A stretch of 64,000 nt of DNA from NCBI RefSeq assembly GCF_036507355.1, contig NZ_AP027877.1; one strand, written 5' to 3'. The notes under the pieces are model-generated. The model did not search any database, was not told where the DNA came from, and saw only the letters and a program-made list of their open reading frames with translations. The DNA comes from Escherichia coli. Its GTDB lineage: Bacteria; Pseudomonadota; Gammaproteobacteria; Enterobacterales; Enterobacteriaceae. Made by a program: the position numbers and the translations under genes. Shown in pieces: positions 3,905 through 60,530 of this stretch (position 1 is the stretch's first letter; every line of letters begins with the position of its first letter).

Positions 3905-4716
3905 CCGAATCAGTAGCCCGTTTGCGCGGCGAACAGTTAACCCTGGGATATGGCAAATATACCGTTGCGGAAAATCTGACTGTAGAAATACCTGATGGTC
4001 ACTTCACGGCAATTATCGGGCCAAATGGCTGCGGTAAATCCACGTTACTGCGTACCTTAAGCCGCCTGATGACGCCTGCTCATGGGCATGTCTGGCTGGA
4101 TGGCGAGCACATTCAACATTACGCCAGTAAAGAGGTTGCACGCCGGATTGGTCTGTTGGCGCAGAATGCTACCACGCCGGGAGATATCACCGTACAGGAG
4201 CTGGTGGCGCGTGGACGTTACCCGCATCAACCGCTGTTTACCCGCTGGCGCAAAGAGGATGAAGAAGCGGTAACGAAAGCGATGCAGGCCACGGGAATAA
4301 CTCATCTGGCAGATCAAAGCGTGGATACCCTTTCTGGCGGACAACGCCAGCGAGCGTGGATCGCGATGGTGCTGGCCCAGGAAACGGCGATTATGCTGCT
4401 CGACGAACCCACGACCTGGCTGGATATCAGTCATCAGATTGATCTCCTGGAACTGTTAAGCGAACTGAACCGCGAAAAAGGCTATACCCTGGCGGCGGTG
4501 CTGCACGATCTTAATCAGGCCTGTCGTTACGCCAGCCATTTAATTGCATTGCGGGAAGGGAAAATTGTTGCTCAGGGAGCGCCGAAGGAGATTGTCACTG
4601 CTGAACTGATTGAGCGCATTTATGGTCTGCGCTGCATGATCATTGACGATCCAGTTGCCGGAACGCCGCTCGTGGTGCCGCTCGGACGAACGGCACCTTC
4701 AATCGCAAATAGTTAA
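3901..4716 (+). CDS. fepC: Ferric enterobactin ABC transporter ATPase FepC
   Basis: ATG at 3901 overlaps the fepG stop; 271-aa product with Walker A (GPNGCGKST), signature (LSGGQRQR) and Walker B (LLDEP) motifs. The track ORF from 3760 is an upstream extension. Confidence 0.95.
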   Translation: MTESVARLRGEQLTLGYGKYTVAENLTVEIPDGHFTAIIGPNGCGKSTLLRTLSRLMTPAHGHVWLDGEHIQHYASKEVARRIGLLAQNATTPGDITVQELVARGRYPHQPLFTRWRKEDEEAVTKAMQATGITHLADQSVDTLSGGQRQRAWIAMVLAQETAIMLLDEPTTWLDISHQIDLLELLSELNREKGYTLAAVLHDLNQACRYASHLIALREGKIVAQGAPKEIVTAELIERIYGLRCMIIDDPVAGTPLVVPLGRTAPSIANS

Positions 4717-5846
4717 ACTAAGTGGTCTGCCATCATGGCATCCTTTTTTCTGGATGCCATCGCATGGCGCAACAGCACGCTACCACAAGCCACCATCCCG
4801 CCGATCAGCGCGGAAAGGATCACAATAATCGCCTTACCCGGACCGTCTTTTTTCACTGGCAATGACGGGCTTAACTGATATTTAAACGGCGTAAAATTCA
4901 CATCGTTGATATTTGCTTTTGTTAACTGCTCAACAAGATACTGACGATTACGTAATTCACCGTTCAGTTCCGCAACGTCAGTGACCGCTTTTTCAATTTC
5001 CAGTTTGCGTTCAATACCGTCTGCGCCGAGAGAAATAGAGAAATCGGGGTCATCTTTAACGGCCTGACCATTACTGTAAACGGGCTTTTTAATTCCTGCC
5101 GCGTTGGCAATGTCGAGTGAATAATTGAGGCGCTGAATGTTTGCATCAAGTTGATTTTTCATTTTAATGCGGTCCTGAGCCAGTTTTTCTTTTTCAAACT
5201 GGGTTTTGATCTCCAGTTTATTACGGACGTTTTCTATCGACTCTTTCACCACCAACGCAGAGATATAATCGATATACCCGCTCAAAACGGTCTGCGCCTC
5301 TTCACTGGTTGGCGCGGTAAAACTTAGCGTCCAGGAGGTATACAGTGACGGTTCATCTTTTTTCTTACTGGCATTGTCATCAACCGCTTTCATTTTTTCG
5401 CTCAATGCGACAATTGCGCGATGCAAATCCAGTTCGTCGATTTTCGCCTCTTTTAATTGGTCCATCACATAAGGTGATGAACGCAGGTACTCTTCCAGCA
5501 AGCTAATTGACTGAAATTTCTTGATAAACAGATTAAATACACCGCCACGGTCGATATTAACATCGAGATCAAGAACGCGGAGTTTGGTAAAGGTTTTCTC
5601 CAGGTCCTGCCACTGAATGGCTTCGGCGGGAGTAATAACGGCTGAGCTGGTCCATTTTTGCGGCAGGATGAAAGAGATCAGTAAACCTGCGCAGGCAAAT
5701 GCAAAAACGACCGCCATGACCGTTTTTTTGGCCCGCCATAAAACTTCGATTAGATTAAGTAAATCAATTTCATTATTACTGGGCGACGCCAGAGGATAAT
5801 CGGGAAAATGAGCGTCACTTCCCTGTTTAATATTCAGTGATGACAT
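4713..5846 (-). CDS. fepE: Polysaccharide co-polymerase (Wzz-like) FepE
   Basis: 377-aa ORF with N- and C-terminal hydrophobic segments and a coiled-coil-rich middle, as in FepE/Wzz family proteins; 3' end overlaps the fepC 3' end (convergent). Confidence 0.9.
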   Translation of the reverse strand: MSSLNIKQGSDAHFPDYPLASPSNNEIDLLNLIEVLWRAKKTVMAVVFAFACAGLLISFILPQKWTSSAVITPAEAIQWQDLEKTFTKLRVLDLDVNIDRGGVFNLFIKKFQSISLLEEYLRSSPYVMDQLKEAKIDELDLHRAIVALSEKMKAVDDNASKKKDEPSLYTSWTLSFTAPTSEEAQTVLSGYIDYISALVVKESIENVRNKLEIKTQFEKEKLAQDRIKMKNQLDANIQRLNYSLDIANAAGIKKPVYSNGQAVKDDPDFSISLGADGIERKLEIEKAVTDVAELNGELRNRQYLVEQLTKANINDVNFTPFKYQLSPSLPVKKDGPGKAIIVILSALIGGMVACGSVLLRHAMASRKKDAMMADHLV

Positions 5847-6013
5847 GGGGTATAACCTGAAAATGAGTCCAATAGGGGGAAATCTCCACGGCGCTCACTT
5901 TACCAGTTGGTGAGAATTATCCGAAGCTGAAGTTTGTAAATTCATTCCACTGAATGCAACATTCACTCTATTTAAGAAAAATAACCAGCAAACTTATAAA
6001 TTAAATAAATGAT

Positions 6014-6046
6014 AAACCCATAATTATTTCCTGCAATTATGGGTTT
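6014..6046 (-). terminator. Stem-loop (12-bp perfect stem) just downstream of entF, candidate intrinsic terminator or RNA stability element
   Basis: aaacccataatt / aattatgggttt inverted repeat with a 9-nt loop, followed on the minus strand by a U-rich tract (AUCAUUUAUUUAAUUU). Confidence 0.4.
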
Positions 6047-6061
6047 ATAGATAATGTTAAT

Positions 6062-9000
6062 TTATCTGTTTAGCGTTGCGCGAATAATCGGCCCAATTTT
6101 TTCAAATGCCCCTGGAGAGATAATATCCACATGCGCACAATCCTGACGATAGATATCCAGCTCCGCAATCCACGGCGACCAGGCGCGTTCAGGACTCATA
6201 CCTTCCTGAAGCGTGCGTTCAGCAACAAACAACGTCGCTTTACCGTCAAACGGTACGCTATGAGCAGTCGTCAGCAGGCGCACAGCATCAGCGTAGTTGC
6301 CTTCAATGGTGGTAAACAGCTCCGTTGAAGTACTTCCCTGCTGTGCCGCCAGGAAGGCCTCGCGCTCGCAGTTAATCTCCGCCAGCACTTCCGGGTCCAG
6401 ACCATTAGCTTCTTTTTCCTGCCAGTTTTGCGTTTCTGGCGGCCAGGTATCCAGCAAGCCAAGAAATGCCACCTGTTCGCCACGGGCACGCAGCCGCGCC
6501 GCAATCCCCTGCGCCAGCGTACCGCCCAGCGAATAACCCAGCAGGTAATAAGGGCCGTGCGGTTGTTGCTCAAGTAACGTTGCCAGATGCGCTTCGCAGA
6601 CTTCATCCAGGTTCGTCGCTGTCTGCATGGGGCCATGAGGGCGCGGCGACTGAATGCCGATAATCGACCATAGTGGATCGAGATAACGCGAGAGCACGCT
6701 AAACTGCCAGGCAAAACCGGATGCCGGATGGAAACAAAACAGCGTCGGGCCATTACCTTCACGCAACGGCAGAATGGTTTCGAATCCCATGCGCCGGGAG
6801 CTGTCCTCTTCACCATCAATAATCGTTGCCAGTTTGGCGACGGTTGACGCGACCATCACCTGCCCCGGCGTCACCTGACGGGCAAACTGCCGACTTAACT
6901 GCGCTGCCAGTTTCATTGCCAGTAGCGAATGACCGCCAAGCGCGAAGAAATCAGCATCGGCATCCTGCACGTCACAACCCAGCAACGACGCGAATGCCGC
7001 AGCGATAATCGTTTCACTGCCCGCTTTCGGCGCACGCCCCGGCGTTTGTGCCTTAAGTTCAGGCAACGGTAAGGCTTTGCGATCCAGCTTGCCGTTGGCG
7101 CTAAGAGGTAACTGTGGAAGTTGCAGCAGAACGACCGGCACCATATGCGGCGGCAATGTTTCGCGAAGCTGTGCCTGTAATGCGCTGGTATCCAACGGCA
7201 GACCTGATTGCGACACCAGATAGCCCACCAACTGACGCGCATCACCACCGGTGGCTGCCGCCTGGTTAATCACACAGGCGTGGGTAACGGCTTGTTCGAC
7301 ATCCGGCAGCGCCTGCATCACGCGATCGATTTCGCCCAGTTCGATACGCTGCCCGCGAATTTTTAGCTGATCGTCACTGCGCCCGAGGTACTCCACCGCG
7401 CCGTTATCCAGCCAGCGGGCAACGTCTCCGGTACGATACATCCGTTCACCTGGGGCAAAAGGATCGGCAATAAAACGGCTGGCGGTCAGATCGGGTCTTC
7501 CAAGATACCCCTGCGCCAGTTGAATGCCGGTGAGATAGAGATCACCCGCCACACCCGGCGGCACCGGATGCATCATCGCATCAAGAATACGCAGACCCGT
7601 ATTCCACACCGGATAACCAATCGGCACACTGCTGCCGCGCACCTGTGCCAGTTCCTCGCCAAAAGCCGGATACCAGCTCACATCTACCGCCGCTTCCGTC
7701 GGGCCATATAGATTATGCAACGGCGCGCCCGTTAACTGTTGCCATTCGCGGCATAAATCAGCCGGTAAGGCCTCACCACTACAGAAAACCTGTTTCAACG
7801 TCGCGCAATTCTGGCGAGCGGTTTGCGGAGTCAGCGATGCAACAAATGCCGCCAGCATCGACGGCACAAAGTGCGTGGTCGTTACGCCATATTCGGCAAA
7901 GAATTGCTGCATAGCGAGCGGGTCGCGGTGCGCTTCCGGTTCAGCCATCACTAGTTTAGCCCCGGCAATAAACGGCCAGAAAAACTCCCACACCGAGACA
8001 TCAAAACTGCACGGCGTTTTTTGGGCAACGACATCTTCGCCTGTAAGCGGGTAGTGATTTTGCATCCATAACAGGCGGTTAACGATAGCCGTCTGCCCGA
8101 CCATTACCCCTTTCGGCCTGCCGGTGGAACCGGAGGTAAAGATGATATAAGCCGTGTGGTGCGGTTGTGAAAGTTGCAGCGGTGCACTGCCCTGCGGTGT
8201 AAGCGGGGCGTTATAGCAAAGGCTGGTTAAATCTGGAACATCGGCAAAGCGCGGCAGTTGATCGTCGGTGGTGATTAACAGCGACGGACGCGCATCTTCC
8301 AGCATCATTTTCAGGCGATCGTCCGGATAGCCGGTATCCAGCGGTAACCAGGCCGCACCAGCTTCAACAATTGCATGTAGCGCCAGAGTCAAAAATACCG
8401 AGCGCGGTAGCGCCACCGCCACGCTGTCGCCAGGTTTAACGCCGCGCTCACGCAGCAGATTCGCCAGCGCCACCACCTGCTCGCGCATTTCCCGATAGCT
8501 GAACTGGTAACGCGCATCTGCCAGCGCCGGAGCATCCGGTGTTTTTGCCGCTTGTTCTGCCACCAGCGCGCTAAGCGTGGTTTCTGGAATCTCAACCTGA
8601 GTGGCGTTGATCTGCGCCAACTGCGCATATTCACCTGGCAGCATAATATCGACATCGCCGCACAACAGCGCCGGATCCGCGGCTAATTGGGCGATCAGCA
8701 TTTTCAGGCGTTCAGCATGCTGGATTAACGTTGGCTCATCGTAACGCTGTTTATTGGCGAGGATCTCAATACTCAAATCACCGTGTTCATCCGGGAACAG
8801 GGCCAGTTCAAGGTCATTAACCGGACCGGTTGCCAGGGTATGGGTTTGCGCCTCAACATCAAGAATATCCAGTTGGTAATCAAATACCTTGATATTGAGT
8901 ACCGGACCAAACAGCGGTTCATCACCTGCCGCTCGCCCGCTGTCACGGACAATTTGTTCGGCATCGTAACGTTGATGGCGACGCATTTTTTTCAGTTGAG

Positions 9001-9943
9001 CCGCCAGTCGGGTTGCCAGTTCCGGCAGCGTTTCTTGTGCCGCAATGTGAATACCCAACGGCAAAACGTTGAGCACAGGTCCGGTAGCCGTCAGCGCCGC
9101 CGACCCCAGTCGACGCATAAAGATAAATCCGGCAGCGTAGTCCATGCGATTGCACAATCGCCCCAGCCACAAAGCCGCCAGCGCAAGAGCTAAATCGGTA
9201 CGCTGCACACCTGAAAGTTGCATAGCCAGCTGGCGGAATTCCCCGTCGGTAAATTCCAGTTTCAGGCGCAGAATATCTGCCGAAGCGCTGCGCCCCGGTA
9301 AAGGTGCCGGAGAAAGTGACGCGGGCGGTGGCAGTTGACGACGCTGTTCCGCCCAGAATGCTGCATCACGCTGCCAGGCTTCGCTTTCGCGGTATTGCTG
9401 GTACTCTCCCACTACATCAGCGAAAGGCGTAAACGGCGAAGCAGGCGTTGGTTCGCCACGCAGTAATGCGCAGTAAATGTTGGCGATCTGCCGGGTAATG
9501 GCCGGGAAACTGAAGCCATCGACCAGCAAATGGTGATAACGCTGATACCAGTACCAGCGGTTATCTGCCACCTGTATCAGCTGGTGAAAGACCAGTGGTT
9601 TACCGCTATCGACGCGCAAATCTTGTTGCAAATCCGCCTGCATTAATGCCTGCGCAGTACCGTGCGGATCAATGTTGGTTCGCAGGTCGATAATTTCTGG
9701 CAGTTCGAATATCAGCGCATCATCGACCCATTGCCAGACTTCGCCGTTATCTTCCGTAAAACGCATCCGCAACGTATCTGCTTGCGCTAATCCGGCAACC
9801 ACCGCGCGGGCCAGTAATGGCGCATCAACCTCTCCGGTTAACTCAACGTAATGCGCCACGCTCCAGGCGGAGGGTAAATCCGACAGTTTTTCTGCCATCC
9901 AGATGCCGGGCTGTGCGGCTACCAAAGGTAAATGCTGGCTCAT
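6062..9943 (-). CDS. entF: Enterobactin synthase component F (NRPS, C-A-PCP-TE, serine-activating)
   Basis: 1293-aa ORF; adenylation core motifs (YIIFTSGSTGRPKGV, YRTGDVAR, GRSDDQLKIRGQRIELGEI), PCP site (LGGHSLLAMKLA) and thioesterase GYSLGG motif visible in the translation. Confidence 0.97.
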   Translation of the reverse strand: MSQHLPLVAAQPGIWMAEKLSDLPSAWSVAHYVELTGEVDAPLLARAVVAGLAQADTLRMRFTEDNGEVWQWVDDALIFELPEIIDLRTNIDPHGTAQALMQADLQQDLRVDSGKPLVFHQLIQVADNRWYWYQRYHHLLVDGFSFPAITRQIANIYCALLRGEPTPASPFTPFADVVGEYQQYRESEAWQRDAAFWAEQRRQLPPPASLSPAPLPGRSASADILRLKLEFTDGEFRQLAMQLSGVQRTDLALALAALWLGRLCNRMDYAAGFIFMRRLGSAALTATGPVLNVLPLGIHIAAQETLPELATRLAAQLKKMRRHQRYDAEQIVRDSGRAAGDEPLFGPVLNIKVFDYQLDILDVEAQTHTLATGPVNDLELALFPDEHGDLSIEILANKQRYDEPTLIQHAERLKMLIAQLAADPALLCGDVDIMLPGEYAQLAQINATQVEIPETTLSALVAEQAAKTPDAPALADARYQFSYREMREQVVALANLLRERGVKPGDSVAVALPRSVFLTLALHAIVEAGAAWLPLDTGYPDDRLKMMLEDARPSLLITTDDQLPRFADVPDLTSLCYNAPLTPQGSAPLQLSQPHHTAYIIFTSGSTGRPKGVMVGQTAIVNRLLWMQNHYPLTGEDVVAQKTPCSFDVSVWEFFWPFIAGAKLVMAEPEAHRDPLAMQQFFAEYGVTTTHFVPSMLAAFVASLTPQTARQNCATLKQVFCSGEALPADLCREWQQLTGAPLHNLYGPTEAAVDVSWYPAFGEELAQVRGSSVPIGYPVWNTGLRILDAMMHPVPPGVAGDLYLTGIQLAQGYLGRPDLTASRFIADPFAPGERMYRTGDVARWLDNGAVEYLGRSDDQLKIRGQRIELGEIDRVMQALPDVEQAVTHACVINQAAATGGDARQLVGYLVSQSGLPLDTSALQAQLRETLPPHMVPVVLLQLPQLPLSANGKLDRKALPLPELKAQTPGRAPKAGSETIIAAAFASLLGCDVQDADADFFALGGHSLLAMKLAAQLSRQFARQVTPGQVMVASTVAKLATIIDGEEDSSRRMGFETILPLREGNGPTLFCFHPASGFAWQFSVLSRYLDPLWSIIGIQSPRPHGPMQTATNLDEVCEAHLATLLEQQPHGPYYLLGYSLGGTLAQGIAARLRARGEQVAFLGLLDTWPPETQNWQEKEANGLDPEVLAEINCEREAFLAAQQGSTSTELFTTIEGNYADAVRLLTTAHSVPFDGKATLFVAERTLQEGMSPERAWSPWIAELDIYRQDCAHVDIISPGAFEKIGPIIRATLNR

Positions 9944-14641: not shown

Positions 14642-14661
14642 TTGACAACATCTGGTACGAT

Positions 14662-15130
14662 TCGCCCGCAGCCATCACTGACTGCGGGCGAAAGTGTAAA
14701 GCAGGTGCCTTACCACTCTGACCTGACAACCGGATATGCGGGGATTGCTCCCCGCACAACGGCTACTTCTTCGGTTCGTAAGCGAGAACAGCCTTAAACT
14801 CAATATTACGTTCCTTTACGGTGAACTCACACAGCGAGTCTCCGACCAGAAGCGTAAATCCCAGCACCGTCAAACACAGCACTATGACTGCCACAAGGGC
14901 ATATTTCGTCAGCATGTTTATATTGCCTCCATGCGAAGAAGGGACTACCATCCGAGTTGTTGAGGCTCGGAGTGGCAGCCCCAGGATTGATAGAAATATC
15001 TCCTGGGGCTTCATCTTTCCAGACCTCAGAGTTAACCTGAAACCGGAAAGCTTCAGGCACCCGCCGTTATCTTACCCTTCCTTAGCAAAATAGCTGTTTA
15101 TTTATACAGTGAATCCTGTTTCGGACTTCT
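14662..15130 (-). other. hokE-like type I toxin-antitoxin locus, copy 1 (repeat unit)
   Basis: About 470-bp unit containing a Hok toxin ORF, upstream mok-like leader and a terminal inverted repeat (cgcccgcag...ctgcgggcg); repeated with 503-bp period at 15165-15632. Confidence 0.8.
14763..14915 (-). CDS. hokE: Hok-family membrane toxin (HokE-like), copy 1
   Basis: 50-aa peptide [50 protein letters not shown], typical Hok/Gef toxin with one transmembrane helix. Confidence 0.85.
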
Positions 15131-59753: not shown

Positions 59754-60530
59754 TTAACGGTACGGATCCATCCAGCGTAAACCGGCTTCTGTGGTGGTTT
59801 GGGGTTTATATTCACACCCAACCCAACCGTTGTAGTCAGAATTTTCGATTACCTTAAAGAGATAATCATAATTAATTTCTCCGGTCCCCGGTTCACCGCG
59901 ATGCGGATTATCAGCAATTTGCAGGTGACCAATTTTATCGGCCCACTGAGTCATGGTGTTGGTTAATTCACCTTCCATCCGCTGCATGTGATAAATGTCA
60001 TACTGAATTTTCAAATTGCAGCAACCAACATCATCAATCAATTTCAGCGCCTGCCGAGTTCCGGTGAGATGGAAACCAGGAATATCAAAATGGTTAATAG
60101 GTTCAATCAGTAATAAAATATCTTCTTTCATCAGCATATTCGCGGCATAACGCAGGTTTTCTACAAGCGTTGCGTGAATCTGTTCACTGCTGAAACCAGC
60201 CGGCGTTTTACCGACCAGACAGTTAATTTTTTTATTACCCAGCGCACGGGCATAACGAATCGCTGCTTCTACGCCATCCCGAAACTCTTCTTCACGGCCA
60301 GGAATACAGGCAATACCGCGCTCCCCCGCCGCCCAGTCACCCGCCGGTAAATTGTGCAGCGTATGTTCGAGTTTATTACTCGCCAGCACCTGTTTTAATT
60401 CTTCAATGTCGTAGTCATAAGGAAACATAAATTCAACGCCGCGAAAACTACACTGCGCAGCTTTCTCAAAACGGGCGAGAAAATCATATTCACCAAATAA
60501 CATCGATAAATTAGCAGAGAAACGTAACAT
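59754..60530 (-). CDS. hyi: Hydroxypyruvate isomerase Hyi
   Basis: 258-aa ORF MLRFSANLSMLFGEYDFLARFEKAAQ…. Confidence 0.95.
   Translation of the reverse strand: MLRFSANLSMLFGEYDFLARFEKAAQCSFRGVEFMFPYDYDIEELKQVLASNKLEHTLHNLPAGDWAAGERGIACIPGREEEFRDGVEAAIRYARALGNKKINCLVGKTPAGFSSEQIHATLVENLRYAANMLMKEDILLLIEPINHFDIPGFHLTGTRQALKLIDDVGCCNLKIQYDIYHMQRMEGELTNTMTQWADKIGHLQIADNPHRGEPGTGEINYDYLFKVIENSDYNGWVGCEYKPQTTTEAGLRWMDPYR

Follow-up and report, generated by a model that had tools for sequence, protein, structure and literature searches.

The window analysed here, a stretch of 64,000 nucleotides of Escherichia coli DNA, carries entF and, downstream of it on the same strand, fepE. The features of the region between the two genes are listed below in the direction of transcription.

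6062–9943, minus strand: entF coding sequence of 1293 amino acids with its TAA stop at 6064–6062 (open reading frame; NCBIfam EntF equivalog, 2801 bits; E. coli annotation)
6050–6066, no strand assigned: AT-rich Fur-like 17-mer GATAATGTTAATTTATC (from the sequence), taken to be without Fur operator function
6012–6048, minus strand: putative terminator hairpin (fold, shuffles, and covariation) with the 5' arm AUAAACCCAUAAUUG at 6048–6034, the loop CAGGAAA at 6033–6027, and the 3' arm UAAUUAUGGGUUUAU at 6026–6012
5990–6011, minus strand: U-rich tail CAUUUAUUUAAUUUAUAAGUUU (T-score 3.0 vs. 4.8 in K-12)
5980–5992, minus strand: major H-NS footprint TTTGCTGGTTATT of the EHEC fepE promoter region (PMC8669466; exact match in the window)
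5925–5920, minus strand: fepE −35 element TTCGGA, overlapping the RcsB-box homologue TCGGATAATTCTCA at 5924–5911 (conserved alignment block)
5897–5905, minus strand: extended −10 element TGgTAAAGT (TG at 5905–5904, hexamer at 5902–5897; conserved across genera)
5886–5890, minus strand: predicted fepE transcription start at about 5888 (geometry of Salmonella SL1344; 5' UTR of about 42 nt)
5859–5856, minus strand: Shine-Dalgarno-like CAGG of fepE
4713–5846, minus strand: fepE, or wzz(fepE), encoding an O-antigen chain-length regulator of 377 amino acids (NCBIfam Wzz(fepE) equivalog, 622 bits)

The promoter of fepE

The fepE promoter block was conserved in 17 of the 18 loci compared and has the elements of a sigma-70 extended −10 promoter. 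The motif CTGnTAnAnT is shared by Escherichia, Citrobacter, and Salmonella, and the −35 and −10 elements are separated by 17 nt. A generic promoter scan missed the block and reported only a site inside entF, because the −35 element is weak and the extended −10 element is not credited. In EHEC, studies with a promoter-gfp fusion have shown that the fepE promoter is active and repressed by H-NS, and that deletion of the H-NS footprint site derepresses fepE 2.1-fold (PMC8669466). In Salmonella, the fepE transcription start site has been mapped, with an RcsB box TCGGATAATTCTGA at −36 to −22 (PMC7913699), and an RpoD ChIP site has been reported for the gene (PMC11548764). The distance from the RcsB box to the ATG is 79 nt in Salmonella SL1344 and 78 nt in the window, and by analogy with Salmonella the E. 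coli transcript would start near position 5888; the accessible literature yielded no mapped fepE start site for E. coli. The preliminary description of the region had suggested that fepE possibly has a separate Fur-controlled promoter. A separate promoter is indeed supported by the published work; it lies, however, not at or near the 17-mer but about 125–160 nt downstream of it (5925–5888), beyond the terminator, and Fur control is not supported by the ChIP-exo maps considered below.

The high-affinity 10-mer bound by H-NS has the consensus TCGATAAATT. The sequence GATAAATT at 6066–6059, within the 17-mer, matches eight of its ten positions, and the GC content is 25–29% over 5950–6099. An EHEC pull-down with a fragment corresponding to 5694–6120 of the window recovered H-NS, CbpA, and Dps, and the H-NS footprint with its 2.1-fold effect (5992–5980) lies about 60 bp from the 17-mer. 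The 17-mer might therefore be a nucleation or spreading site within an H-NS-bound, AT-rich tract that silences fepE, a role that would be compatible with a terminator at the same place. We regard this as a tentative possibility, since matches of 8/10 occur at chance level in the window (57 found vs. 59 expected), the published major footprint is elsewhere, and the 17-mer is not conserved across the E. coli alleles in which fepE has likewise been reported to be down-regulated on attachment.

The hairpin downstream of entF

A hairpin of 14 Watson-Crick pairs and one G-U pair with a 7-nt loop begins 13 nt after the entF stop on the minus strand, and 166 nt separate its 3' end from the fepE ATG (5846). 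This agrees with the preliminary description, which had noted a stem-loop and U-rich tract past entF about 170 nt before fepE. The hairpin has a predicted folding energy of −15.0 kcal/mol (z = −4.79), and none of 200 shuffled sequences folded as well. In the 64 kb, just one other inverted repeat with a loop has arms of 12 nt or more; it lies right after entD. The hairpin was retained in both the minimum free energy and the centroid structure of its 171-nt context, and no anti-terminator fold was found there. A search of Rfam at a permissive threshold over 5500–6500 gave noise only, with no match at an E-value below 2 (all at least 2.3). A terminator pattern scan reported one site, and shuffled sequences gave 0.8. 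An outer helix between the RNA of the 17-mer and the distal U-rich tail was also seen in the folds; it is retained as wobble pairs in K-12 but lost in other Escherichia species, and was rejected as a conserved element.

Among the Escherichia, Citrobacter, and Salmonella sequences compared, 22 out of 23 have a hairpin with a T-rich tail 13–41 nt past the entF stop (13–21 nt in Escherichia, 24–41 nt in Citrobacter and Salmonella). In C. amalonaticus a non-homologous, GC-rich hairpin is found at the same place. Seven of the 15 pairs are altered on both sides, and 94.2% of the alignment cells are paired, compared with 36–52% in slid controls. The covariation score of 0.369 (0.04–0.08 in the controls) was reached by none of 500 shuffles. 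Thus, a stable stem-loop with compensatory changes lies just past the last gene on the transcribed strand, as would be expected of a terminator. An IS1 insertion lies within the hairpin in one strain. The within-species divergence of this 100-bp stretch is unusual.

The stem is AU-rich, with only three G-C pairs in 15. With the GGG of the stem core as the starting point, the U-tract is UUUAUCAUUUAUUU in the window, where A and C interrupt it, and UUUUUUAUUUGUUU in K-12; the first eight nucleotides after the GGG include five U in the window and seven in K-12, and the d'Aubenton-Carafa discriminant is −30 and +4, respectively. The window allele may therefore terminate less tightly than that of K-12. 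These properties (the AU-rich stem, the imperfect U-tract, and the negative discriminant), together with about 170 nt of untranslated RNA past the stop that could load Rho, would also suit a hairpin serving mainly as a 3'-end stabilizer or processing barrier, with the fall in transcript level from entF to fepE caused by Rho or by rapid decay of the spacer. We consider this decidedly unlikely as the main explanation: a canonical run of 5–7 U follows the stem directly in K-12 and in most other species, the hairpin and the T-tract are conserved together, and the spacer is AT-rich and not C-rich. Even so, part of the drop could come from unequal mRNA stability or from Rho.

The preliminary description had left the choice between a terminator and an attenuator. 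Conservation, covariation, and the drop in transcript level argue for the former. A regulated attenuator, at which read-through is tuned by the ribosome at the entF stop or by a factor on the A-rich 5' flank, is very unlikely. The stop is 13 nt from the stem base, such that a terminating ribosome could touch the outer A-U pairs, the weak U-tract of the window is typical of factor-sensitive terminators, and the 5' flank is able to pair with the distal tail; on the other hand, neither a competing structure nor an Rfam match was found, the distance from stop to hairpin is not conserved, and the outer pairing is lost outside E. coli. The search for a mapped RNA 3' end at the hairpin found none; neither entF nor fepE appears in the searchable Term-seq data (PMC7815308), and standard media keep entF repressed. 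For a possible sRNA derived from the entF 3' UTR, no paper was found that connects entF with Hfq and RIL-seq.

The Fur-like 17-mer and the effect of Fur on fepE

The 17-mer, read from the window as gataatgttaatttatc on the plus strand at 6050–6066, takes in the final Arg codon and the stop of entF and extends 12 nt into its 3' UTR. The preliminary description was right about its location and its overlap with the entF stop, and had likened it to a Fur box. Among the criteria applied, a Fur box should agree well with the 19-bp consensus GATAATGATAATCATTATC, or else contain three or more GATAAT-like hexamers in phase, to a degree not explained by local composition; it should also contain an inverted repeat of the 7-1-7 type (TGATAATnATTATCA), and as a rule a pair of them that overlap with a 6-bp offset. 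The 17-mer matches the 19-bp consensus at 13 of 19 positions, as do or exceed 35 strand-sites in the 64-kb window, and 14.8% of dinucleotide-preserving shuffles of the entF–fepE intergenic region reached at least 13/19, so that the resemblance is within chance. A better match, with 15/19, lies inside the hyi coding region. Under the 7-1-7 model the 17-mer scored below 10/14 and contained no unit, whereas the genuine fepD–entS and fepA–fes sites are 7-1-7 arrays at 10–11/14. Its GATAA/TTATC half-sites are 7 bp apart and not 9. Counting consensus matches cannot distinguish the 17-mer from the true fepA–fes operator, as both score 13/19; the assessment was accordingly based on shuffled sequences, the 7-1-7 model, sequence conservation, and the published Fur occupancy.

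The exact 17-mer is present only in O157/O145-type alleles, and its counterpart in K-12 is AATAATATTAATTTACC. It is absent from K-12 and from eight of the 11 E. coli alleles examined, as well as from all Citrobacter and Salmonella loci compared, so the orthologous regions do not conserve it. The allele of the window occurs in 407 of 5426 genomes, and the intergenic region of O157 Sakai is identical to that of the window. The ATC end of the 17-mer depends on a synonymous choice between the codons AGA and AGG. Its position is not that of an operator at a −35/−10 region either, the terminator lying between the 17-mer and the fepE promoter.

The resemblance noted in the preliminary description had implied possible Fur binding at the 17-mer, and the published in vivo maps speak against it. 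In the Fur ChIP-exo study of Gao et al. there is no peak between fepA/fes and fepD/entS in any of eight E. coli strains (MG1655, W3110, W, KO11FL, 042, BL21(DE3), Sakai, and CFT073). In the Fur ChIP-seq of CFT073 the peaks listed are only at fes/fepA and fepD, and Fur was not among the proteins recovered in the EHEC pull-down. An information-theory scan for Fur sites in K-12 (PMC2189734) mentions neither entF nor fepE, and K-12 in any case does not have the 17-mer.

Expression data show how differently the two genes respond. In published RNA-seq of fur mutants, the values for entF and fepE were 902 and 6.8 in MG1655 and 1326 and 23 in W3110, a drop of 58- to 133-fold in K-12, and in CFT073 deletion of fur derepressed entF 294-fold and fepE 4.9-fold; these drops come from K-12-type strains and CFT073, not from the allele of the window. 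This drop bears out the earlier suggestion that transcription of fepE is not mere read-through within a single operon. The fitted read-through was 0.7% for MG1655 and 1.7% for W3110. In agreement, fepE belongs to neither of the two Fur iModulons, and in serum fes, ybdZ, and entF are induced and fepE is not induced alongside. Together, this shows that the modest dependence of fepE on Fur needs no Fur box.

A working Fur operator at the 17-mer, providing fepE with a Fur-controlled promoter of its own, is hardly credible: although no single 19-mer of the genuine fepA–fes operator, which has weaker matches at 6-bp shifts, scores above the same 13/19, and although loss of fur raises fepE 5- to 55-fold, this rise is about 60-fold smaller than the effect on entF and fits read-through, and the ChIP-exo strains without a peak include Sakai with the identical allele. 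The 17-mer is an incidental, strain-specific AT-rich stretch composed of the terminal AGA codon of entF, the TAA, and the A-rich sequence that precedes the hairpin.

Transcript organization and comparison with known systems

The region is very probably organized as an entF terminator followed by a separately promoted fepE, which is controlled by H-NS and RcsB and not by Fur, with the Fur-like 17-mer being incidental. The hairpin and U-rich tract at 6048–5990 on the minus strand would act as a Rho-independent terminator at which the Fur-regulated fes-ybdZ-entF transcript ends, 13 nt past the entF stop. Most transcription of fepE would then begin at a sigma-70 promoter of its own, some 90 nt farther downstream, which would be subject to H-NS repression and RcsB binding and not to Fur. 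The small effect of Fur on fepE is best accounted for by about 1–2% of transcripts reading through the terminator once entF is derepressed several-hundred-fold. Termination at the hairpin in the allele of the window is an inference, as are the read-through percentage and the position of the E. coli transcription start.

The hairpin, the fepE promoter, and the Fur story are ordinary and essentially already known. Gao et al. give the transcription unit as fes-ybdZ-entF, while EcoCyc/RegulonDB-style tables, as far as they are reflected in PMC4145685 and PMC7157518, present fes-ybdZ-entF-fepE as one unit. The database operon would really be fes-ybdZ-entF plus a separately promoted fepE, a correction that helps the modeling of the Fur regulon and work on O-antigen length control in EHEC. 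As each piece is already contained in published ChIP-exo, RNA-seq, H-NS, and RcsB studies, this amounts to little beyond tidying of the annotation. A further idea is that the hairpin is a tunable, fast-evolving valve, with the O157/O145 allele leaking more and selection on the coupling of fepE to iron lying behind the divergence and the IS1 insertion; we consider this unlikely. If it were true, iron starvation would measurably raise fepE and lead to longer O-antigen chains in O157/O145 pathogens, and allele-dependent terminator strength would tie iron starvation to very-long O-antigen in some lineages.

Compared with the Fur boxes of the enterobactin cluster (fepA–fes, fepD–entS, and fepB–entC), the 17-mer is similar in being AT-rich, in its GATAAT-like hexamers, and in its palindromic look, and it equals the fepA–fes operator in its best single consensus match of 13/19. 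Unlike them, it has no phased 7-1-7 array, its half-site spacing is 2 bp short, and it is off-promoter, unconserved, and without Fur in ChIP-exo and ChIP-seq, whereas the genuine operators of the cluster have Fur peaks in every strain. The hairpin resembles the intrinsic terminators at the ends of enterobacterial operons in that a stem-loop and a U-rich tract lie a few nucleotides past the last stop, the stem has compensatory changes, the A-rich 5' flank mirrors the U-tract, and the transcript level falls strongly downstream. It differs from the usual intrinsic terminators in its AU-rich stem and, in O157/O145-type alleles, in the interrupted U-tract. The fepE promoter corresponds to that described in EHEC for the H-NS/YgjI pathway (PMC8669466), as the window contains the exact EDL933 H-NS footprint sequence, and to that of Salmonella with its RcsB box and SalCom transcription start site (PMC7913699), from which the RcsB-box homologue of the window differs by one mismatch, with the same extended −10 element. 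There is no material difference between the published fepE promoter and that of the window, which is another copy from the EHEC lineage.

A probable terminator between entF and fepE

The window belongs to the EHEC O157/O145 lineage, with 99.7% identity to the O145 strain RM9872 over 5700-6300, and between entF and fepE it matches O157:H7 Sakai at every position. The 215-bp spacer and its flanks contain the following features (window positions):

6062-9943, minus strand: entF, 1293 aa, TAA stop at 6064-6062
6050-6066: Fur-like 17-mer GATAATGTTAATTTATC, spanning the entF stop
6048-6012, transcript (minus) strand: hairpin of 14 Watson-Crick pairs and one G-U pair, 7-nt loop
4713-5846, minus strand: fepE, also wzz(fepE), 377 aa

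The base of the hairpin lies 13 nt past the entF stop, 166 nt separate its 3' end from the fepE ATG, and its T-rich tail reads CAUUUAUUUAAUUUAUAAGUUU. The preliminary description of the motif, the hairpin, and the tail was accurate; it had proposed a terminator or attenuator after entF and possibly a separate, Fur-controlled fepE promoter. The hairpin is far outside chance (z-score -4.8; 0 of 200 shuffles fold equally well). Across the 64 kb, just one further inverted repeat has a loop and arms of 12 nt or longer. This second one, a GC-rich hairpin with a 4-nt loop (TTCGCCCGCAGCCA / TGACTGCGGGCGAA, 14661-14692), follows the entD stop (14641) by 20 nt and probably terminates the fepA-entD unit, the neighbouring Fur-regulated unit of which entD is the last gene. 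At its far end, fepE (minus, end 4713) converges on and overlaps fepC (plus, end 4716) by 4 bp (4713-4716), leaving no space for terminators between the genes, so the fepDGC and fepE transcripts must run mutually antisense unless stopped within the genes.

The fepE locus was compared in one genome per species and in extra E. coli alleles. The gene order entF-fepE is kept in Escherichia, Citrobacter, and Salmonella, and in 22 of 23 sequences the entF stop is followed after 13-41 nt by a hairpin with a folding energy of -10 to -18 kcal/mol and a T-rich tail. In C. amalonaticus an unrelated GC-rich hairpin (AUCCCUCGUAAC…GUUACGGGGGAU followed by CUUUUAUU) occupies the place of the AU-rich one, which argues that the function, and not just the sequence, is conserved. 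In Citrobacter sp. MGH106, the spacer measures 344 bp and contains a degenerate copy together with an additional long palindrome, ccccagtcacttatcaggtaagtgactgggg. When 20 homologous hairpins were aligned, standard pairs filled 94.2% of the alignment cells, against 36-52% in controls with slid partners, and 7 of the 15 pairs had changed on both sides (e.g., CCC/GGG to GCC/GGC or UCC/GGA), with A-U to U-A changes occurring within E. coli. The covariation score was 0.369 versus 0.04-0.08 in the slid controls, a value reached by 0 of 500 shuffles. No competing structure was found in a 171-nt fold and no Rfam match in the hairpin region. The hairpin is most probably a plain intrinsic terminator and not an attenuator.

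Published RNA-seq does show the expected expression boundary between the two genes. The values for entF and fepE were about 902 and 6.8 in MG1655 delta-fur and 1326 and 23 in W3110 (Gao et al. 2023, PMC10164565 supplement); a two-point fit gives read-through of 0.7% and 1.7%, respectively, plus a small constant fepE level. In CFT073, deletion of fur raised fes 388-fold, ybdZ 158-fold, and entF 294-fold, and fepE just 4.9-fold (PMC7157518 supplement). The induction of fes, ybdZ, and entF in serum did not extend to fepE (PMC4145685), fepE is absent from both Fur iModulons, and the transcription unit named in ChIP-exo peak lists is fes-ybdZ-entF (Gao et al. 2023, PMC10164565). These data support the view that fepE is not simply read through within one operon. 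The Term-seq studies searched, in whose media entF is repressed, contained no mapped RNA 3' end at the hairpin.

Allelic variation of the terminator

The RNA-seq values come from strains with a K-12-type tail (UUUUUUAUUUGUUU) and from CFT073, and the window tail differs from that of K-12. It is interrupted (UUUAUCAUUUAUUU), with a classical discriminant of -30 versus +4 in K-12, and judged by its sequence the window allele may be leakier. Within E. coli, the 106 bp comprising the terminator and an H-NS site (5975-6080) vary far more than their surroundings: the window allele (at least 99% identity) was found in 407 of 5426 genomes and 3393 were just 80-90% identical, whereas identity over the 601-bp region that takes in the gene ends is mostly 90-99%. 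The alleles look mosaic; O139 P15-25, for instance, combines the window motif with the K-12 tail. Terminator strength might differ between alleles, and such variation might link O-antigen length to iron starvation in certain lineages.

In E. coli HCP30S3_I2 (NZ_CM149861.1, 3131339-3132178), an IS1A within the 5' arm of the hairpin (…ataaaccc|ggtgatgctgcc…, window about 6041) abolishes the terminator and parts entF from the downstream sequence. The FepE homologue of E. coli SCPM-O-B-8794, adjoining a contig end, is just 76% identical to that of the window. Three fepE homologues of Pseudocitrobacter lack an entF in the upstream 1.5 kb, and fepE is thus not linked to the enterobactin cluster in every genome.

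The Fur-like motif

The motif agrees with the 19-bp Fur consensus at 13 positions, as do 35 strand-sites of the window, and when the intergenic region is shuffled with its dinucleotides preserved, 14.8% of the shuffles reach at least 13/19. A better match (15/19, GATAATCATAATTAATTTC, 59861-59879) lies inside the coding sequence of hyi (hydroxypyruvate isomerase), in the gcl-hyi-glxR cluster; this match has no known iron link. The half-sites GATAA/TTATC are 7 bp apart instead of 9, and the motif contains no unit scoring at least 10/14 in the 7-1-7 inverted-repeat model; phased arrays of such units are present at fepD-entS and fepA-fes. Nor is the motif conserved: just 3 of the 11 E. coli alleles compared, and no Citrobacter or Salmonella locus, carry the exact form, its K-12 counterpart is AATAATATTAATTTACC, and its ATC end is set by the synonymous AGA/AGG choice in the last EntF codon. 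In Citrobacter sp. R56, a Fur-like AT-rich palindrome of different sequence (cagataatatcattatac) has the same relative position directly 5' of the hairpin, which points to a tendency of the A-rich 5' flank of the entF terminator to yield Fur look-alikes.

The most decisive evidence comes from Fur ChIP-exo: the peak lists of MG1655, W3110, W, KO11FL, 042, BL21(DE3), Sakai, and CFT073 hold no peak between fepA/fes and fepD/entS, and the Sakai entF-fepE intergenic sequence is exactly that of the window. A pull-down with EHEC DNA recovered H-NS, CbpA, and Dps without Fur; its fragment maps to 5694-6120 and includes the motif, and the result is weak negative evidence because Fur binding needs a metal cofactor.

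The fepE promoter

Escherichia, Citrobacter, and Salmonella share the block TTTCGGATAATTCT...CTGnTAnAnT, which in the window holds these elements of the fepE promoter:

5925-5920: -35 element TTCGGA
17 nt: spacer between -35 and -10
5905-5904: TG of the extended -10
5902-5897: -10 element TAAAGT

In Salmonella SL1344, the RcsB box TCGGATAATTCTGA begins 79 nt before the fepE ATG and transcription starts 36 nt past the start of the box (PMC7913699). The window homologue, TCGGATAATTCTCA, begins 78 nt before the ATG, and the shared geometry predicts a fepE start near 5888. An RpoD ChIP site lies upstream of Salmonella fepE (PMC11548764), and a fepE promoter-gfp fusion is active in EHEC EDL933 (PMC8669466). 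The top 7-1-7 match of the intergenic region, GGATAATTCTCACCA (5908-5922, minus strand; 10/14, chance P = 0.33), sits in the -35/spacer part of this promoter, overlaps the RcsB box, and is kept across genera; a repressor would have to bind at this position, and no Fur ChIP peak has been reported there.

In EDL933, H-NS binds the fepE promoter region; its major footprint is TTTGCTGGTTATT, removal of which derepresses fepE 2.1-fold (PMC8669466). The footprint corresponds to 5992-5980, directly past the terminator tail. The Fur-like motif lies within the same 25-29% GC trough and may thus contribute to the DNA that H-NS binds, although its 8/10 match to an H-NS 10-mer is at chance level.

The preliminary description was right to propose a terminator. 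Of the proposed Fur-controlled promoter, the separate promoter holds, located elsewhere than at the motif, and the link to Fur is unsupported. The fepE promoter has already been described in the literature, and the finding is an ordinary one.
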